From IMG/VR virus record IMGVR_UViG_3300007553_000105, positions 1-64,000 of that record: DNA of 64,000 nucleotides; one strand, given 5' to 3'. A model generated the notes under the pieces. It saw nothing but the letters and a program-made list of their open reading frames with translations. It did not search any database and was not told where the DNA came from. Source of the stretch: a virus (Duplodnaviria; Caudoviricetes). Of the stretch, positions 7,804-35,067 are shown in pieces; the first letter of the stretch is position 1; the number at the start of each line of letters is the position of its first letter. The position numbers were made by a program, and so were the translations under genes.

Positions 7804-8548
7804 GATATTTTATGTTGGCTACCCCCGATACAATTTGAGATCTGTATTTTTCAATGGTGTTCGTTGCCACATCCCAATTAGGCATCCATAGCCCAAAAAA
7901 ATGTGCATCATAATCTTTTTCATAACCTGGCGGAATTAATTTGTCACATTCCAAATCAAACACTACTAGCCCATCTTTTGCAAGTTCATCATAATTTGCA
8001 ATGTGTTCTTCTCGAGTCCTATTCCACCAAGATTCTACACCCATACCATCTGGGACTTCTGTAATAAACGCCCCATGGTCTGCTACGCTGTTTTTCCATA
8101 CGTCTAGACTGTGACGCATACGTGGCCAGTCAGTTGCAGCATCATCATTAATTAAATCATAATGTGTTTTATTTGATAGCTTGGAAAGTTTTTCTGGCGC
8201 AGTGTGATCATACGCACTCTCCCCAAATAATACTTCGATATTTGGAAATTCTTCCATTATCTTCACGGCATTATTGTAGCTTTCAATTTCTCTGCTGTAG
8301 GTAGCTATATCAGTCATGCTAGGATGAAAACGTTCAATGCCGTATATTGCCACATCAGTGCTTGCTTCTGCATATCTTTTGTGACTTCCAGCGCCTGCCA
8401 CTCCAAGTTCAACATAACTTGAAATTAGAGAGACACGCTGAATATCGTCAATCAATGAACAAATAAACGGCATAAACCCGCGAGCCGCGCTGCGTTGAAT
8501 TTTTACTTCGTTAATGTGCAAGTCGTAAAGTTTTTTAGTGTCTATCAT
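7796..8548 (-). CDS. class I SAM-dependent methyltransferase-like protein (paralog of 7009..7803)
   Basis: YVELGVAGAGSH, IYGIERFHP and YDLINDDAA motifs. Confidence 0.65.
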   Translation of the reverse strand: MIDTKKLYDLHINEVKIQRSAARGFMPFICSLIDDIQRVSLISSYVELGVAGAGSHKRYAEASTDVAIYGIERFHPSMTDIATYSREIESYNNAVKIMEEFPNIEVLFGESAYDHTAPEKLSKLSNKTHYDLINDDAATDWPRMRHSLDVWKNSVADHGAFITEVPDGMGVESWWNRTREEHIANYDELAKDGLVVFDLECDKLIPPGYEKDYDAHFFGLWMPNWDVATNTIEKYRSQIVSGVANIKYHE

Positions 8549-25885: not shown

Positions 25886-26582
25886 TTAATATACTCCGTG
25901 TTTTTTCTGTCATCAATCCAGTCAGTTGTAACATTGGGCGTGGCGCATTGCTGGCGTTAGCAGTAGCATGTGGAGTATCACCCCATCTAAACACATGGGC
26001 GTCACCCGCCTTCCAGTCTTGATAATTATAGTTTCCGTAAATTATAAACTGCCCAGGAACCCAATCTTCTAGCATAACATGTATTCTTACTAATCTACTG
26101 TGATCTATATCTAAATTATACAGCCCCTCGTCTATGTGCATTACATACATGTTACCTGGAATTTGATAGTGTATTTTAACTCCGTACTTTCCAGTCAGTC
26201 CTGGTATATTTTCAGGATTATCGAAAAACTCTAAACCAAAGCTATGGACTAATTCGTAAAGTTTCGGGAACATATCAGGGCGTTCATAAAAATTAACGCA
26301 TGTCAGAGTTTTTTCAGCGTCTGTACCTTTGTTAACGTGTCTTGTTGTCTGGTTAATAAAATCTATATGTTCAAATTCAGGAGTGATTTCTTTTGGCTTT
26401 AAGTTTGGATTTTTTGATGTTATATATTTAGAATGAAGATAATTTAATTCTATATCGTAATGATTGTAAAAATTGCCAATAGTTTTAAACCATGGCCCAT
26501 CCGCAGTATCTTTTATATTGTTATTAAAATGGTATGCACTGTGTTTATACGGTACCTGCCAAAAATTATTTTCTCCGTCCAT
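25875..26582 (-). CDS. 2OG/Fe(II)-oxygenase-like cupin protein (paralog)
   Basis: HID...PHATANAS...RP motifs. Confidence 0.7.
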   Translation of the reverse strand: MDGENNFWQVPYKHSAYHFNNNIKDTADGPWFKTIGNFYNHYDIELNYLHSKYITSKNPNLKPKEITPEFEHIDFINQTTRHVNKGTDAEKTLTCVNFYERPDMFPKLYELVHSFGLEFFDNPENIPGLTGKYGVKIHYQIPGNMYVMHIDEGLYNLDIDHSRLVRIHVMLEDWVPGQFIIYGNYNYQDWKAGDAHVFRWGDTPHATANASNAPRPMLQLTGLMTEKTRSILNEA

Positions 26583-26587
26583 GCAAT

Positions 26588-26593
26588 TATTTA
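26588..26593 (-). promoter_or_regulatory. TAAATA late-type promoter box
   Basis: TAAATA 5 nt upstream of ATG 26582, directly after a terminator. Confidence 0.55.
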
Positions 26594-26595
26594 TT

Positions 26596-26623
26596 AAATG
26601 AAAATGGCGGCTTGCGCCGCCAT
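26596..26623 (-). terminator. intrinsic terminator after tctA
   Basis: ATGGCGGC-GCAA-GCCGCCAT hairpin followed by TTTCATTT. Confidence 0.85.
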
Positions 26624-26627
26624 CTTG

Positions 26628-28148
26628 TTATGTAAAGTCTATACCACGGTCTTTTCGTCTAAAGCTATTGATAAACAACAACACTGATATTACAAGTGCG
26701 CCAATAAAAATTGGATGTTCAGTGATGCTAAACAGTCTACTCCATTCAAAGTTTTCCCAACGTTTAGCGAATGTTTCACCCCAAGGCTGGTAACGATAAA
26801 CACGCAATGTCTGGAATAAGTAATCGTCAAACTTATCTGCTACAACAAACGCAACAAGAACTGCTGGACGACTAATACTACCAAACTTTAGGAAAATACC
26901 TAGTATACTAAAGATAGCAAGTAATGTTAAATCTTCCCAACTGTTTGAGTATTGTAGGTTAGCATATATGATTACAAGTACAATAAACGATGCATAAATC
27001 CAGTAGGGTACTTCCAGAATTTTAATAATCCATTTGTATAGTACAATACTTAACAGTGCAACGCCAATTGTTCCAAAAATATAACCAAACGCCATACTCC
27101 AGACAAACTCACGATCGTTTAGTAGTTGTACAGTGCCAATCTCCATACCAAAATACATTGCAATAGCCATAACCATTGCTGCAAATGGTGCTGCTGGAAT
27201 ACCAAACAGCATAGCTGGAATCATACTACTTACTTTTTGTGCATTGTTTGCACCTTCACAGCCCAGCAATCCAATAGGGTTGCCTTCGCCAAATGGAACC
27301 TCTTGTGGCTCTTTGTGTGCTGCTTTAGTTGCGCCGTAAGCAAGGAAGTCTCCTACTGCACCACCTACGCCTGGAATAAGTCCTGTAATGAATCCAATAA
27401 ATCCACCACGTAACATATCCCGCCAATGTTTTCTTACATCACGGAAGCCCCATTTAAGTTGATTCCAATAATCATCACTGGCTTTAGGAGGAACAGCTTT
27501 CGATCCTGCTTTTAATCCCCACAGTAGTTCAGGGATACCAAATAGTCCTGACAATAGTGCAATCATAAAGTGTGAACTTTCGCCTACACCAGCCAAGTAT
27601 TCCCACCCAAAAGTAAATCTTGGGTTACCAACTTGGTCTTGCCCTATTAGACCAATGAACAAGCCAAGAGCAATAGCAAATAAGCTAGTCCAGGGATTTT
27701 TACTTGCGACAAATCCAACACTTGCAAGTGCTAGTGTCATGAAGCCCAGTAACTCTGGACGTCCAAACTGTGTAACAATAATGCCGTAATATGGCAATAG
27801 TGTAAATGCTAAAAATGCATATAGCACACCGTTAACTGTGCTGTCTGCAATAGCAATGCCCATGGCACGACCAGCTTGGCCTTTCTTTGCCATTGGATAA
27901 CCGTCAATAACACATGCAGCGGTTGTGCTTGCGCCAGGAATACCTGTAAGAATACTGGTATAACTGTCAGCACTGGCACAACTTGCAATGATAGCTGTTA
28001 AAAAGACCAACCCCAAATAGGGGTCGGCCAAGAAATATGTACCCATGCTAAAGACAGTTATCAGGGCAGTAGTAACACCCGCAATTGGAATGATACCAAC
28101 TAGCATACCATAAAGTGTGCCAAGTATTGCCCAGATAACGTATTCCAT
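26628..28148 (-). CDS. tctA: tripartite tricarboxylate transporter large membrane subunit (TctA family)
   Basis: ILTGIPGAS, DGYPMAKKGQAGRA, RFTFG, EGANNA and GIP motifs; many TM helices. Confidence 0.88.
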   Translation of the reverse strand: MEYVIWAILGTLYGMLVGIIPIAGVTTALITVFSMGTYFLADPYLGLVFLTAIIASCASADSYTSILTGIPGASTTAACVIDGYPMAKKGQAGRAMGIAIADSTVNGVLYAFLAFTLLPYYGIIVTQFGRPELLGFMTLALASVGFVASKNPWTSLFAIALGLFIGLIGQDQVGNPRFTFGWEYLAGVGESSHFMIALLSGLFGIPELLWGLKAGSKAVPPKASDDYWNQLKWGFRDVRKHWRDMLRGGFIGFITGLIPGVGGAVGDFLAYGATKAAHKEPQEVPFGEGNPIGLLGCEGANNAQKVSSMIPAMLFGIPAAPFAAMVMAIAMYFGMEIGTVQLLNDREFVWSMAFGYIFGTIGVALLSIVLYKWIIKILEVPYWIYASFIVLVIIYANLQYSNSWEDLTLLAIFSILGIFLKFGSISRPAVLVAFVVADKFDDYLFQTLRVYRYQPWGETFAKRWENFEWSRLFSITEHPIFIGALVISVLLFINSFRRKDRGIDFT

Positions 28149-28158
28149 TAGCTGGTCC

Positions 28159-29220
28159 TTATTCTACAAGTTGTGGCTTGTAAACACTTGGGAAGCCGTA
28201 TGCTTCTTGGTTCCAGCGAACCGCAGCTTTTAGTGCATCCTCTGTGATTAGACCTTTCAAGAACTCTAGCATTGCTGGGCCGTCTTCACCTACGATCCAA
28301 GGATAGTCACCTGCAAGTGCTTTGATCTCTGCCATTGACTCTTCGTCTGCGAGCATTGCTTTTAGTGCTTCACGTAGCTTTTCAGTGTTTGGATTATCAC
28401 CACGTACCCAGAGTGATTTCTGGATAACGTCACGCCAGTTGCGTGTTAGTTTGTAAGCATCATAAAGTTCACCGGTTGGGTATTCACCCCATAGCTCTTT
28501 GTACTTTTCTTCAAACTGTGTACCAGGATAGTTTGGATCTTCAACTTGTTTGCCAGTTTCTAGATCTAGGATACCGTGTGTTAGCCATAGAACGTTGCCT
28601 TCGATATCTTTGTAGAACTTGTTCCATGCTGCTGGTGATTCACGTGCAACATCAAATTCACGGTTCATGAAACCTAGACGCTTCTCGCCGCCTGATACGC
28701 CGCTGATCCATACAGCACGTTCACGCCAGCAAGCTAGGTATGCATCAACTGAACCGCCGTCTGCTTGTGGACCGCAAAGCATCATTGCCATCGCAGCACC
28801 ATCTGGCTCAAAGCCTGAGCCGCCAGCAATACGCCATACGCCTGACTTTTCATCTGCGCCTTCGTGCTTGCCTAGTACGATATCGTTGTTGTTTGAACCG
28901 ATTAGGTCGTATTCGAAGTAGTTGTAGTCTACATCATCAAGTAGGAATGATACGCCGTTGCCGCCGTGTGCAACCATGATCATCTTATCATCGTTTTGTA
29001 GTTCGTTATGAAACTTGTTGAAGCCAGGAATATCACGTGCGCCTGGTTCATGGCGAACAACTACCTGTTCGTCTGTAAATTTCGAAAGGTTACGAGCAAT
29101 AATTTCTGCCCATACACTTGTACCTTTACCTGGTTCCTGTGGAACCACTAGGGTATAATCTGCCATTGCTGCTGATGCAGAAAGGGATAGAGCTACTGCT
29201 CCCATTAGAATTTTCTTCAT
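28159..29220 (-). CDS. periplasmic substrate-binding protein, TctC/Bug-like
   Basis: Signal peptide; LVVPQEPGKGT and HEPGA motifs; adjacent to tctA. Confidence 0.78.
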   Translation of the reverse strand: MKKILMGAVALSLSASAAMADYTLVVPQEPGKGTSVWAEIIARNLSKFTDEQVVVRHEPGARDIPGFNKFHNELQNDDKMIMVAHGGNGVSFLLDDVDYNYFEYDLIGSNNNDIVLGKHEGADEKSGVWRIAGGSGFEPDGAAMAMMLCGPQADGGSVDAYLACWRERAVWISGVSGGEKRLGFMNREFDVARESPAAWNKFYKDIEGNVLWLTHGILDLETGKQVEDPNYPGTQFEEKYKELWGEYPTGELYDAYKLTRNWRDVIQKSLWVRGDNPNTEKLREALKAMLADEESMAEIKALAGDYPWIVGEDGPAMLEFLKGLITEDALKAAVRWNQEAYGFPSVYKPQLVE

Positions 29221-29237
29221 TTTTCATCTCCTGTGAT

Positions 29238-29900
29238 TTATGAATTTTTCAATCGATTGTTTCTATCTGGTTGGCAACCTGCCAAGACGATATCGTCTAA
29301 CCAGTAATCTTCAATATACTTAATATACTTGTGATTTGCGTCTTTGTCAATAAATTTTAGAATTTCTGGATCATCCCATGCTACTGGAAAGTCTAGTATT
29401 TTACCTATCCATTTTAGATAGTGCTGTTTGTGAAGGAAAAATGCTTCATGGTCCACAAAGTTTACATCTAAATCAGACGCTAACAAAGTATTATAGTAAT
29501 AGTCTTGTGCAATAGGAGTAGTGTGCGCTTTACGCACTCGCAACTGTTGCATTTGATTGATATTCTGGTCTCTAACCACAATAGCAATCGTCACGTCAAC
29601 CCCAAAACTTTTCACTCGCTCTGCGACTTCTAAAATTTTAGGAACGTATCTAACTCCATCATAAAAGAAAGGACAGCTCACATTTGCCATATGATACTGA
29701 TGTGTTTCAAATATCTCCGGAGTTAGTAGTTCTGGGCGGACCCAGTATTCAGCAAAGGGTTCCTGATCACTCGGTACCCAATATTTATCTAGCAATTCTT
29801 CCCAGCCTGCTACCTCGGGGTGTTTGCTGAAAAGTCTGCTAAAGAGATGGTTACCAGACCCCTGTGGCCCGGTAACTATCAATAGTTTTTTATTTTGCAT
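29238..29900 (-). CDS. P-loop sulfotransferase-like protein
   Basis: IVTGPQGSGNHLF (5'-PSB-like) and IVVRD (3'-PB-like) motifs. Confidence 0.55.
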   Translation of the reverse strand: MQNKKLLIVTGPQGSGNHLFSRLFSKHPEVAGWEELLDKYWVPSDQEPFAEYWVRPELLTPEIFETHQYHMANVSCPFFYDGVRYVPKILEVAERVKSFGVDVTIAIVVRDQNINQMQQLRVRKAHTTPIAQDYYYNTLLASDLDVNFVDHEAFFLHKQHYLKWIGKILDFPVAWDDPEILKFIDKDANHKYIKYIEDYWLDDIVLAGCQPDRNNRLKNS

Positions 29901-30555
29901 GTCGTTGTTGGCCTACATATGTTCTAATCTTTAACGGGTTGACCTCATCAGTTGGGCCAGTGCCGCTGTCTGGTGCAAATACAAAGAGTAGCACGTCTTC
30001 ATCGTCAGTAATAAAATTATGCAGTTCATTACGTCTCATAAAGAATACCTCGCCTTCATTAATTGGAAACATTTCTTCGTTATCCAATTCCACTCTTCCA
30101 TTGCCTTTTAAAATCAATCCTATACGATGACTTGGGTGTGTATGCAGCGTTTGATACATGCCAGCTGGAAAGTGAACATAGTTAATAACTGGATCTCCTA
30201 GACGCCCAGGATTAATAGCTGTGCTATTACTACCGCCGTCCATGTATGTCAAGTTACCAATATCCATTTCTTCTTGGATAAAAATTCTACTTTCCAAAAA
30301 CCTTAGCCCAGGATAGTTGACAACAACTGCTGAACTGTCACTGTCTTTGCATCTTACTGTAAACTCACCATTGGCTACCATTATGGCAGCATTTGCTCTT
30401 TTTACAAGTTTATTTTCGTCTTCAAATTCAGAATTTCTAATTAGAACATAGTTTGTTCCAGGCTGGTTAAAAGTACGTGATTCGCCACTTTCCAGCTTTG
30501 TTAAATTTAACACCCAACGATCATTTGATATATATTCTTTTTTTACATTAATCAT
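29890..30555 (-). CDS. cupin-domain protein
   Basis: QTLHTHPSHRIG...GEVFFM..NELHNF metal-binding cupin motif; start could be 30585. Confidence 0.8.
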   Translation of the reverse strand: MINVKKEYISNDRWVLNLTKLESGESRTFNQPGTNYVLIRNSEFEDENKLVKRANAAIMVANGEFTVRCKDSDSSAVVVNYPGLRFLESRIFIQEEMDIGNLTYMDGGSNSTAINPGRLGDPVINYVHFPAGMYQTLHTHPSHRIGLILKGNGRVELDNEEMFPINEGEVFFMRRNELHNFITDDEDVLLFVFAPDSGTGPTDEVNPLKIRTYVGQQRHAK

Positions 30556-30574
30556 ATCTATATACTCGATGTGT

Positions 30575-30598
30575 GGGTTGCCCATTAATGAGCAACCC
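30575..30598 (-). other. stable stem-loop downstream of the ferritin-like gene
   Basis: GGGTTGCTCAT-TA-ATGGGCAACCC with no U-tract; probably an mRNA stabiliser or partial terminator. Confidence 0.55.
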
Positions 30599-30606
30599 CA
30601 AGCTGA

Positions 30607-31311
30607 TTACCAGCCGTATGCTTCTGCTACTAGTTCTTTAGCTTCTGCTACTGCCGCTGTGTTTGAGCAAGAAATCTGGAATAGATCCTTGCGCATTTGA
30701 TCAACTAATTCTAGGATACGAGCTTGCTCTTCACCTGTAACTGCTATCTTTGCTAGGCGTAGACCACCGATGTTTGCGTGGAAGCCTTCGTCTGCTGCAA
30801 TTTTAGCATATGCTTTTGAGATGTATGCGTCTTCGATGCATTCTGCCATTTCGTTCCATACTGCTTCAGCGCGGCCTTCTGCTACTAGCTGGTATGCTGC
30901 TAGAGCTGCTTTGTCGTCTGTTGCTTCGTACTTTGCTAGTAGAGCTGCGCCCTTAGCTGTTGGCTTTGCTGCCTCTGCCGCGATTGCTGCTTCAACATCT
31001 AGTTCTGTACCAGTGATGTGTTCGATAACGTCTTTTACCATCTTGAAGTGAACTGCTTCGTCTAGTGCTTGCTTTGTTAGTAGCTCTAGTTCTTCAGCTG
31101 GTGTGTTTGCTGGCATTGCAGCAATTGCAGCTGAAATTTCTGACATGTTCATGCGCTCGTTGACCATACGGCCTGTGAAGTGCTCTACTAGTTGTTCTTG
31201 TGATGGATTTGAATTAAAGTATGCACGTGTGTTCATACGTGATGCGTCGAATAGTGCTTTGTTCTCTGCTGTGATTTTTGCAACGAACTCTTTACCTGTT
31301 AGTGTTGTCAT
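30607..31311 (-). CDS. ferritin-like diiron protein
   Basis: E...DEAVH and E...DEGFH diiron ligand pairs; start MTTLTG after a GGAGA RBS; strongly biased codons. Confidence 0.8.
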   Translation of the reverse strand: MTTLTGKEFVAKITAENKALFDASRMNTRAYFNSNPSQEQLVEHFTGRMVNERMNMSEISAAIAAMPANTPAEELELLTKQALDEAVHFKMVKDVIEHITGTELDVEAAIAAEAAKPTAKGAALLAKYEATDDKAALAAYQLVAEGRAEAVWNEMAECIEDAYISKAYAKIAADEGFHANIGGLRLAKIAVTGEEQARILELVDQMRKDLFQISCSNTAAVAEAKELVAEAYGW

Positions 31312-31332
31312 GATGTTTCTCCATTCTATCAT

Positions 31333-31486
31333 AAAAAAAATAGTTCTATAAAACTTTGTTTTATAGTTTAAAAACATCTATACTTCTGTGAATTATAGAT
31401 GGGTCACACATAGTAACTCAATTGCGACTCCGCTTATTGACTGTGTGGCTCATCATATGATGATCGTCAGTAGAACTCTCTACTGC
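31333..31486 (-). ncRNA. candidate structured 5' leader / cis-regulatory RNA
   Basis: Five consecutive inverted repeats, the last two followed by U-tracts, directly after a TAAATA box (31492-97). Confidence 0.5.
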
Positions 31487-31509
31487 ATTATTATTTATGC
31501 CTCAGAAAA

Positions 31510-32055
31510 TTACATCAAAAGGGTTTGAACTTCTTTTGGCAAATATGGGTTTTTCATACGTTCAGGATGCCAAACTACTGCGGCCATTTTTCCTTCTATC
31601 CAAGATTCACAATAACCTGCGTAGTCTGTTGTTAATACTATTGCATTTTCAGGCGCTTTGTTTATGCACATAGTATGATAAGAGTTGACAACGTGTTCTT
31701 CTCCATTCGTATAAACACGATGAGATACGCCGTGATGATCTTCTATAATGCCTACCGCACCGCCATTTAGAGTTGTTAATAGAAAAGCACCGTGGCATAT
31801 TCCGACCACTGGCTTATTTAATAATAACATTTCTGTAGCCATACGTGTTTCAGTAATACGCCTAATATTAGGATCATTGCCACCAGTTAACACCAAAGCA
31901 TCTATCTTGTTTGCAAGTTGTTTGAAGTCCTGATCTATTCTATTAGGAATAGGTATTATTTCTTGGTCTTTAAAATAATGATACCAGGCTTGATCTGTTG
32001 AATCGTAAGCCTGGCCATTGTGATATATTACTCGTTGCGATAGTCCAACAATCAT
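31510..32055 (-). CDS. class I glutamine amidotransferase / peptidase C26 family
   Basis: LTGGND, GICHG, VNSYH and WHPE motifs. Confidence 0.85.
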   Translation of the reverse strand: MIVGLSQRVIYHNGQAYDSTDQAWYHYFKDQEIIPIPNRIDQDFKQLANKIDALVLTGGNDPNIRRITETRMATEMLLLNKPVVGICHGAFLLTTLNGGAVGIIEDHHGVSHRVYTNGEEHVVNSYHTMCINKAPENAIVLTTDYAGYCESWIEGKMAAVVWHPERMKNPYLPKEVQTLLM

Positions 32056-35052: not shown

Positions 35053-35067
35053 TATTTATTATAAATA
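35053..35067. promoter_or_regulatory. back-to-back TAAATA late-type promoters
   Basis: TATTTAT-TATAAATA between divergent genes; the + box matches the T4 late consensus TATAAATA. Confidence 0.65.

Follow-up and report, generated by a model that had tools for sequence, protein, structure and literature searches.

Background

Stem-loops at the very 5' end of a message can stabilise it, as in the leader of E. coli ompA and with the stable hairpins found in T4 intercistronic regions. The leader described here resembles these elements in having a hairpin at, or a few nucleotides from, its predicted 5' end and an unpaired ribosome-binding site (RBS), but its five extra conserved helices and two invariant GAGY loops (GAGU or GAGC) exceed what protection of an end would need. 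With lambda nut boxB and HK022 put it shares two promoter-near hairpins with a conserved loop and covarying stems, set before terminator-like structures and a long operon. The boxB loops, however, are GNRA-like pentaloops while those here are GAGY tetraloops; neither sequence nor loop similarity nor an N-like gene was found, the terminator further down is weak, and the phage is T4-like rather than lambdoid.

Late promoters of the T4 type have the consensus TATAAATA in T4 and KVP40 and NATAAATA in T4-like cyanophages (PMC2984593). The present locus matches that type in its -10-like ATAAATA box, in having no conserved -35 element, in a gp55-like sigma factor encoded by the same genome, and in the recurrence of the box, sometimes as divergent pairs. 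It differs in that a constant spacing links the box to a conserved 5'-terminal hairpin and a structured leader of 175 nt, whereas the other boxes in this phage lie only 12-59 nt from called gene starts. A second T4 comparison is the RegB endonuclease, which targets GGAG/U in intergenic regions, needs an unpaired GGA, and usually cuts in the RBS itself (PMC3014915). Short G/A-rich motifs exposed in the intergenic RNA of a T4-like phage are common to both cases, but GGA is missing from most leader loops, which read A|GAGU|U or C|GAGC|G, and the base in front of the loop, usually A, U or C, is paired. The GAGY loops thus do not present the unpaired GGA(G/U) of a RegB site, and that identity was rejected. 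The sole Rfam model touching the region, IS605-orfB-II (RF02998), does so at 16.1 bits against a gathering score of 88 (E = 3), a chance-level match, and was likewise discarded.

Results and discussion

Gene context

The window (the whole stretch of DNA analysed, 64,000 nucleotides) belongs to a 95.8-kb IMG/VR record rated 27% complete, whose genes are densely packed, with overlapping ends and strong AAGGAG-type RBSs. T4-type portal, baseplate wedge and baseplate hub proteins are encoded in the record outside the window; their genes, and a tape-measure-like gene, lie near the gp55-like sigma factor gene. A related 354-kb record (98% complete) carries the same gene island together with the T4 Gp23 major capsid protein (E = 7e-99), and GenBank phage isolates gave no DNA or protein match to the region or to the first gene of its operon. 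Judged by its T4-type proteins, the Gp23-bearing relative and the lack of a GenBank isolate match, the genome is that of an uncultured T4-like jumbo phage. The T4 gp19 family (PF06841) gave no match anywhere, controls included, and is uninformative.

The non-coding gap spans 31312-31509 (198 nt) on the minus strand. On its 5' side lies a class-I glutamine-amidotransferase-like gene (31510-32055; Pfam GATase, E = 2e-11), and on its 3' side a 234-aa gene (30607-31311, minus strand) whose ATG at 31311 is preceded by a GGAGA RBS. The initial annotation called this the longest clearly non-coding gap it found in the window; long as it is, it is not clearly the longest there or in the record, since gaps of 220-384 nt also appear in a crude list derived from ORFs. 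The start at 31311 is backed by the RBS and by homologues of 231-234 aa aligned at the N-terminus. A 256-aa ORF from an ATG at 31377 is an open-frame artefact, as the homologues align from 31311, and the public gene call of 241 aa is also too long; both are corrected here to 234 aa. The gene heads an operon:

26628-31311, minus strand: operon headed by the leader, comprising the 234-aa gene, a cupin (231 aa), a 220-aa protein, a TctC-like protein (353 aa) and TctA (506 aa)

The 353-aa protein keeps the name TctC-like from the initial annotation, and gave no family match here. Around the leader, the same gene families (a methyltransferase-like 227-aa protein, the 234-aa protein, GATase, cupin, the 220-aa protein, tctC, tctA and three paralogues of ~240 aa) recur in reshuffled order between phages (loci L003-L082), usually with the 234-aa gene first. 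In one relative (L060), clusters of 12 tRNA genes flank the leader locus on both sides, within ~2-4 kb of it (700-1620 and 7830-8090). The stop codon of the 234-aa gene is directly followed by a stable hairpin, GGGUUGC..GCAACCC (30586-30606, minus strand, ~-17 kcal/mol), that has no U-run; rather than a terminator, it is probably an internal element that stabilises the mRNA or directs its processing.

The 234-aa protein, a ferritin-like or heme-oxygenase-like diiron candidate, bears the public name "rubrerythrin". Pfam returns only a sub-threshold Ferritin_2 match (E 0.003) and no family assignment. The AlphaFold model (pLDDT 90.7) is unlike rubrerythrin, and its best Foldseek likenesses are the heme-oxygenase-like diiron enzymes Chlamydia CADD/CT610, PqqC and UndA (TM ~0.62-0.66, with E only ~5e-3). 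The protein may be considered a candidate heme-oxygenase-like diiron oxidase, which is a lead and not an assignment. Its invariant residues are E85/H88, E145/E149 and D174/E175/H178. Relatives of the gene occur in 291 viral-contig stretches, and more than 2264 protein relatives were found in metagenomes; at most of these loci the upstream neighbour is divergent and the spacer is ~92 nt.

A six-helix RNA leader

Every hairpin noticed in the initial annotation was found where it had been placed, on the minus strand. From the 5' end of the message, the features of the gap are:

31492-31498, minus strand: ATAAATA box (containing TAAATA), matching the -10-like element of a T4-type late promoter
31468-31485, minus strand: P1, the 5'-terminal hairpin CAGTAGA-GAGT-TCTACTG, a 7-bp stem with a GAGU tetraloop (31478-31475)
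31450-31463, minus strand: P2, the palindrome TCATCATATGATGA (UCAUCA-UA-UGAUGA), a short hairpin with conserved CAUC/GAUG arms
31405-31447, minus strand: P3, a long interrupted hairpin with basal (CACACA/TGTGTG, 31447-42/31410-05), middle (TCAAT/ATTGA, 31440-36/31422-18) and apical (GCG-GAGT-CGC, 31433-24) helices and the second GAGU tetraloop (31430-31427)
31370-31401, minus strand: P4, the AU-rich hairpin CATCTATA..TATAGATG (arms CAUCUAUA..UAUAGAUG, 31401-31375) followed by U5; terminator-like but weak
31333-31366, minus strand: P5, the hairpin CTATAAAAC-AAA-GTTTTATAG (that is, CUAUAAAAC-AAA-GUUUUAUAG, 31366-31346), with U8 5 nt further on (31340-31333)
31309-31322, minus strand: unstructured ribosome-binding region, with GGAGA (31322-31318) and the ATG (31311-31309)

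The distance from box to ATG is 187 nt, and the leader, of ~175 nt, has six helices. The whole gap folds at a minimum free energy of -47.3 kcal/mol, compared with -34.5 +/- 4.0 for 200 dinucleotide shuffles, none of which folds as well (z = -3.2). P1 (-7.8 to -10.3 kcal/mol) and P3 (-7.7 to -14 kcal/mol) account for the more stable hairpins; P2 (0 to -3.4 kcal/mol) and P4 (-0.8 to -7.4 kcal/mol across versions) are thermodynamically marginal, though conserved in sequence. RNA contigs and L148, a metagenome contig that is nearly identical, show natural variants that shorten U8 to U7 (31333) and delete one nucleotide from the P2 loop (31457), both at unpaired sites.

Conservation and covariation

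Relatives of the leader were gathered by two pattern scans, of viral and metagenome contigs, followed by a covariance model, and comprise 25 distinct versions. Among the loci of the 234-aa gene, a subset can be aligned with the leader along its full length. The leader occurs once per record in every case, always directly 5' of the first gene of the operon; that gene is mostly the 234-aa gene, and in one lineage (L098, L181, L207 and L217) is tctA, followed by tctC. A repeat or mobile element is ruled out, since a second copy is absent from both the 95.8-kb record and four related ones; other GAGY hairpins of the record, such as those at 54772-54753 and 33459-33444, fall within coding regions. 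A quick protein tree, the one source for the leader's phylogeny, divides the leader loci between a deep clade of 12 (support 100) and a pair made up of the window phage and L003 (support 98), so that the element is either old or exchanged between lineages.

Standard pairs fill 95.0% of 988 cells in the alignment of the 25 sequences, which is fitted to the structure model and represents only ~8-10 lineages. On that same alignment, compensatory double changes affect 21 of 40 pairs and are present in all six helices. The covariation score is 0.317, a value reached by none of 500 shuffles (0.161 +/- 0.009), and falls to at most 0.097 when the pairing partners are slid by 1-3 columns. Helix by helix, pairing holds in 98.5% of cells for P1 (3 of 8 pairs compensatory), 93.5% for P2 (2 of 5), 95.7% for the basal helix of P3 (3 of 6), 97.1% for its apical helix (5 of 7) and 93.7% for P4. 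P5 is conserved in position family-wide (90.9% of cells, 6 of 7 pairs compensatory), but that of the window phage lies in an insertion relative to the covariance model; the P5 hairpins of relatives differ, are GC-richer and have no U-run, so that the P5+U8 combination is peculiar to the window phage. The gap holds a genuine, conserved six-helix RNA leader, which represents a new structured RNA family, and the structured non-coding RNA seen in the initial annotation at the head of the diiron/Tct operon is real, as the 25 versions and their covariation attest.

Inverted repeats of this kind could in principle act in the DNA, as an operator or a replication or packaging signal, or be chance palindromes in an AT-rich spacer; each hairpin is also an inverted repeat in the duplex, and the region is AT-rich. 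Paired positions, however, hold 31 G.U against 2 A.C combinations, which assigns the structure to RNA of the gene-sense strand and not to DNA or antisense RNA. The stems covary while an asymmetric loop sequence stays fixed, the region is transcribed, and the fold is significantly better than those of the shuffles. A DNA-level or chance origin is largely refuted and scarcely credible.

What is held constant in the leader is limited. The GAGY tetraloop caps P1 in every version and a second caps P3, which extends across the family the GAGU loop that had been recognised as common to two hairpins of the window phage. The stems beneath vary freely (CAGUAGA, UAGCACA or UAGUGCA in P1; GCG, UAUAACU or GCC in P3). 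Conserved sequence is also found in the P2 arms (CAUC/GAUG), on the 5' side of P4 (CUCAUUUAU, which is CAUCUAUA in the window phage) and in the RBS stretch AAAUGGAGAAU, nearly invariant across the family and unpaired; outside the RBS, no unpaired bases other than those of the two GAGY tetraloops are invariant. The leader resembles a tandem duplication of one unit, in which a hairpin with a GAGY loop precedes one whose 5' arm starts (GCU/GCA)ACUCAU (P1-P2 versus P3-P4). An example is L063, with GCUACUCAUC after P1 and GCAACUCAUU after P3; in the window phage the shared word is CAUC.

Two further ideas about the leader were tried and dropped. A pseudoknot between the GAGU loops and an ACUC 3' of P1 or P3 fails because ACUC is absent from the leader of the window phage and does not covary with the GAGC variants. 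A leader peptide could start at an AUG in the 3' arm of P4, which in some relatives opens frames of 3-14 codons (MFYSW...), but these have no Shine-Dalgarno sequence and vary in length and stop.

A long, structured and conserved leader before metabolic and transport genes invites the interpretation, among the candidates of the initial annotation, of a small-molecule riboswitch controlling the diiron/Tct operon. The statement in that annotation that no known riboswitch class was recognisable agrees with the Rfam check: Rfam 15 has no gathering-score match in the window, and the leaders of six relatives gave no hit up to E = 1. A riboswitch is nevertheless very unlikely. The architecture is one of six simple hairpins in series with no multi-helix junction, conserved unpaired nucleotides amount essentially to the two tetraloops, with almost none outside them, the expression platform is weak, and most relatives drive the same operon from a one-hairpin leader.

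A T4-type late-promoter box at the leader head

Just 5' of P1, the sequence ATAAATA-N5-G is invariant in all 25 leader versions. The initial annotation mentioned TAAATA and gave it no role; the box fits a T4-type late promoter, being TATAAATA-like with no conserved -35 element. From the established geometry of T4 promoters, we infer that transcription starts at G31486, the sixth base after the box and the base before P1. The gp55-like late sigma factor gene of the record (77622-78461, plus strand) matches phrog_12791 at E 1.3e-91 and phrog_234 at E 2.5e-22 and adjoins a gp47/SbcD-like gene, as in T4.

Across the record, 9 of 21 copies of ATAAATA fall in intergenic DNA, which makes up ~5% of the total, and eight of those nine precede a gene on the same strand, at 12-59 nt from the called start. 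Most control heptamers of equal composition show weaker enrichment. TATTTAT, the reverse complement, reaches a similar level (10 of 21), as expected from back-to-back boxes, and three ATAAATA pairs are indeed arranged as back-to-back divergent boxes. These palindromes, TATTTAT-N-ATAAATA, sit in divergent intergenic regions 12-59 nt ahead of called gene starts on both strands (in the window at 35059/35061 and 37745/37748, and in the record at 85123/85159) and look like bidirectional late promoters. In the complete relative, no ATAAATA box directly precedes the major capsid protein gene, which is uninformative about its promoter because that gene sits within a long operon.

Among homologues of the 234-aa gene, 64 of 67 distinct upstream regions have an [AG]TAAATA box, and a hairpin of at least 7 bp starts 3-8 nt after the box in 62% of them, compared with 17% of control positions. 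Most relatives have the same operon behind a one-hairpin leader of ~40-90 nt. As far as these upstream regions can tell, the design shared by the clade places a 5'-terminal hairpin between the late box and the RBS, with an expansion to six helices in the lineage of the window phage.

Initiation by host polymerase is another possible origin for the message. A sigma70-like promoter, TTGATG-17-AATAAT, matches at 9 of 12 positions and overlaps the late box. In a tctA-type relative (L098, 1690-1760) a perfect sigma70 promoter, TTGACA-17-TATAAT, lies just 5' of the late box, and several marine versions have TATAAT 20-27 nt upstream of theirs. In these relatives the sigma70 motifs suggest an early promoter paired with the late one, an arrangement reported for T4-like cyanophages.

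Terminator-like hairpins inside the leader

The initial annotation had inferred that conditional termination in the leader controls the operon. P4 is the obvious candidate, and its U-run varies: UUUUAUU in most relatives, UUUAUU, UAUU or AUUUUUU in others, U5 in the window phage, and none in the tctA-type version. A strong terminator of the same phage provides the comparison:

26575-26635, minus strand: GC-rich, strong terminator after tctA, GAUGGCGGC-GCAA-GCCGCCAU plus U-run

The tctA terminator segment folds at about -17 to -19 kcal/mol (-19.3), far below the values for P4. Directly after it, an ATAAATA box at 26594 serves the next gene, so that terminator and late promoter form one module. 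P4 lacks the stable GC-rich stem with an immediate U-run that marks an intrinsic terminator, and the U8 of P5 lies 5 nt from its stem. P3 does not overlap P4, and inspection of the leader alignments found no conserved antiterminator pairing that competes with P4; the 3' arm of P2 can be matched to the 5' arm of P4, but this candidate was rejected as it reaches only 4-5 bp and is uncompensated in L003. P4 with its U-run is a leaky terminator at most. With P4 weak and AU-rich, its U-run degenerate, P5+U8 specific to this phage, no antiterminator found, and RNA contigs running continuously into the operon (see below), the conditional termination proposal is not borne out.

A factor-dependent version of attenuation, or processive antitermination, would have transcripts stop at P4 in the absence of a factor; the GAGY hairpins would load a protein on polymerase, or act on polymerase themselves, so that it reads past P4 with its U-run and later hairpins. 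The layout is suggestive: two promoter-near hairpins with an invariant loop and free stems are followed by a conserved hairpin with a U-rich tail, the unit of a GAGY hairpin and then a hairpin starting CUCAU or CAUC is present twice, and the operon is long and was assembled as one 6.1-kb RNA contig. Yet P4 is weak beside the GC-rich terminators of this phage, its U-run has decayed to UAUU in one lineage and is absent from the tctA-type, P3 does not overlap P4, inspection revealed no conserved alternative pairing, and no N-like or other antiterminator gene was identified. T4-type late transcription is not known to use antitermination systems. We regard factor-dependent antitermination as unlikely, though it ranks first among the alternatives.

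Transcription in metatranscriptomes

Part of the region is contained in 11 metatranscriptome runs, four of which were examined as Logan contigs. In all four, the contig over the 234-aa gene extends into the leader, ending at 31474 (X1), 31476 (X4), 31456 (X2) and 31455 (X3). These ends lie 10-31 nt downstream of the predicted +1, with the proviso that contigs give no exact transcript ends, and no contig in the four runs reaches the box or the upstream GATase gene. The X1 contig, of 6131 nt, runs from 31474 through the operon and beyond the stretch used for mapping. The stretch that the RNA runs leave uncovered, 31475-31546, is no evidence by itself; contig depth cannot rank leader against coding region, and RNA libraries may contain DNA. 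All four contig ends lie midway through P1 or P2, where library or assembly effects at hairpins, or RNA processing, may be responsible. As a weak hint, the contigs agree with a boundary of transcription at the leader's head and with polymerase reading on through P4 and P5.

These same contigs bear on whether the leader is an independent small RNA of ~110-150 nt, made from the late promoter, ending at P4 or P5 and acting in trans. Release of an sRNA of ~150 nt was part of the initial annotation, and nothing was found that supports it. The leader does have its own promoter box, a compact conserved fold and a terminator-like P4 with U-run, followed in the window phage by P5 and U8. But in each of the four runs leader and coding region are linked within RNA contigs (a minor short species would be invisible to contigs), the element always abuts a conserved RBS and the first gene of one operon type and is never free-standing, its terminators are weak or unconserved, and no conserved single-stranded seed is evident beyond the 4-nt loops. 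An sRNA is thus distinctly improbable.

A probably stabilised late message with two putative recognition loops

The reading we prefer, with a probability of roughly 0.55, is that the gap is the ~175-nt 5' leader of a late operon mRNA, in which the end hairpin stabilises the message, the GAGY hairpins bind a factor and the RBS is kept open. The gp55-type late sigma would direct RNA polymerase to the ATAAATA box, and transcription would start ~6 nt past it, at the base of P1, so that the mRNA is born with a 5'-terminal stem-loop. That hairpin most likely guards the message against decay that depends on the 5' end. The GAGY loops of P1 and P3 are probably twin recognition sites for a putative trans-acting factor, which could be a protein or the transcribing polymerase itself, and the RBS, left unpaired, would allow efficient translation. 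A pure stabiliser would be an incomplete account, because it leaves the conservation of P2 and P4 unexplained. No candidate loop-binding protein was identified.

A more speculative extension, which we hold to be possible but doubtful, is that the twin GAGY hairpins supply the RNA component of a phage regulatory system not yet described, in which a phage or host protein, or the late polymerase, reads the two loops on the nascent leader. If so, loop recognition would switch the diiron/Tct operon through read-through of P4 or through controlled mRNA decay, and would amount to a nut/put-like device acting on T4-type late transcription. We know of no nut/put-like RNA element in T4-type late transcription.

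Conclusions

The leader is a new covariation-supported RNA family, transcribed in nature, and a false riboswitch lead has been removed from its annotation. The phages that carry it, uncultured and T4-like with genomes of ~350 kb, make up a widespread clade sampled from estuarine, marine and freshwater environments, and the leader reveals how late mRNAs appear to be built in that clade, with the late-promoter box fused to a 5'-terminal hairpin. The two invariant GAGY loops provide an RNA handle for finding the factor that may control this large auxiliary-metabolism operon of a putative oxidase, a cupin and a Tct transporter.
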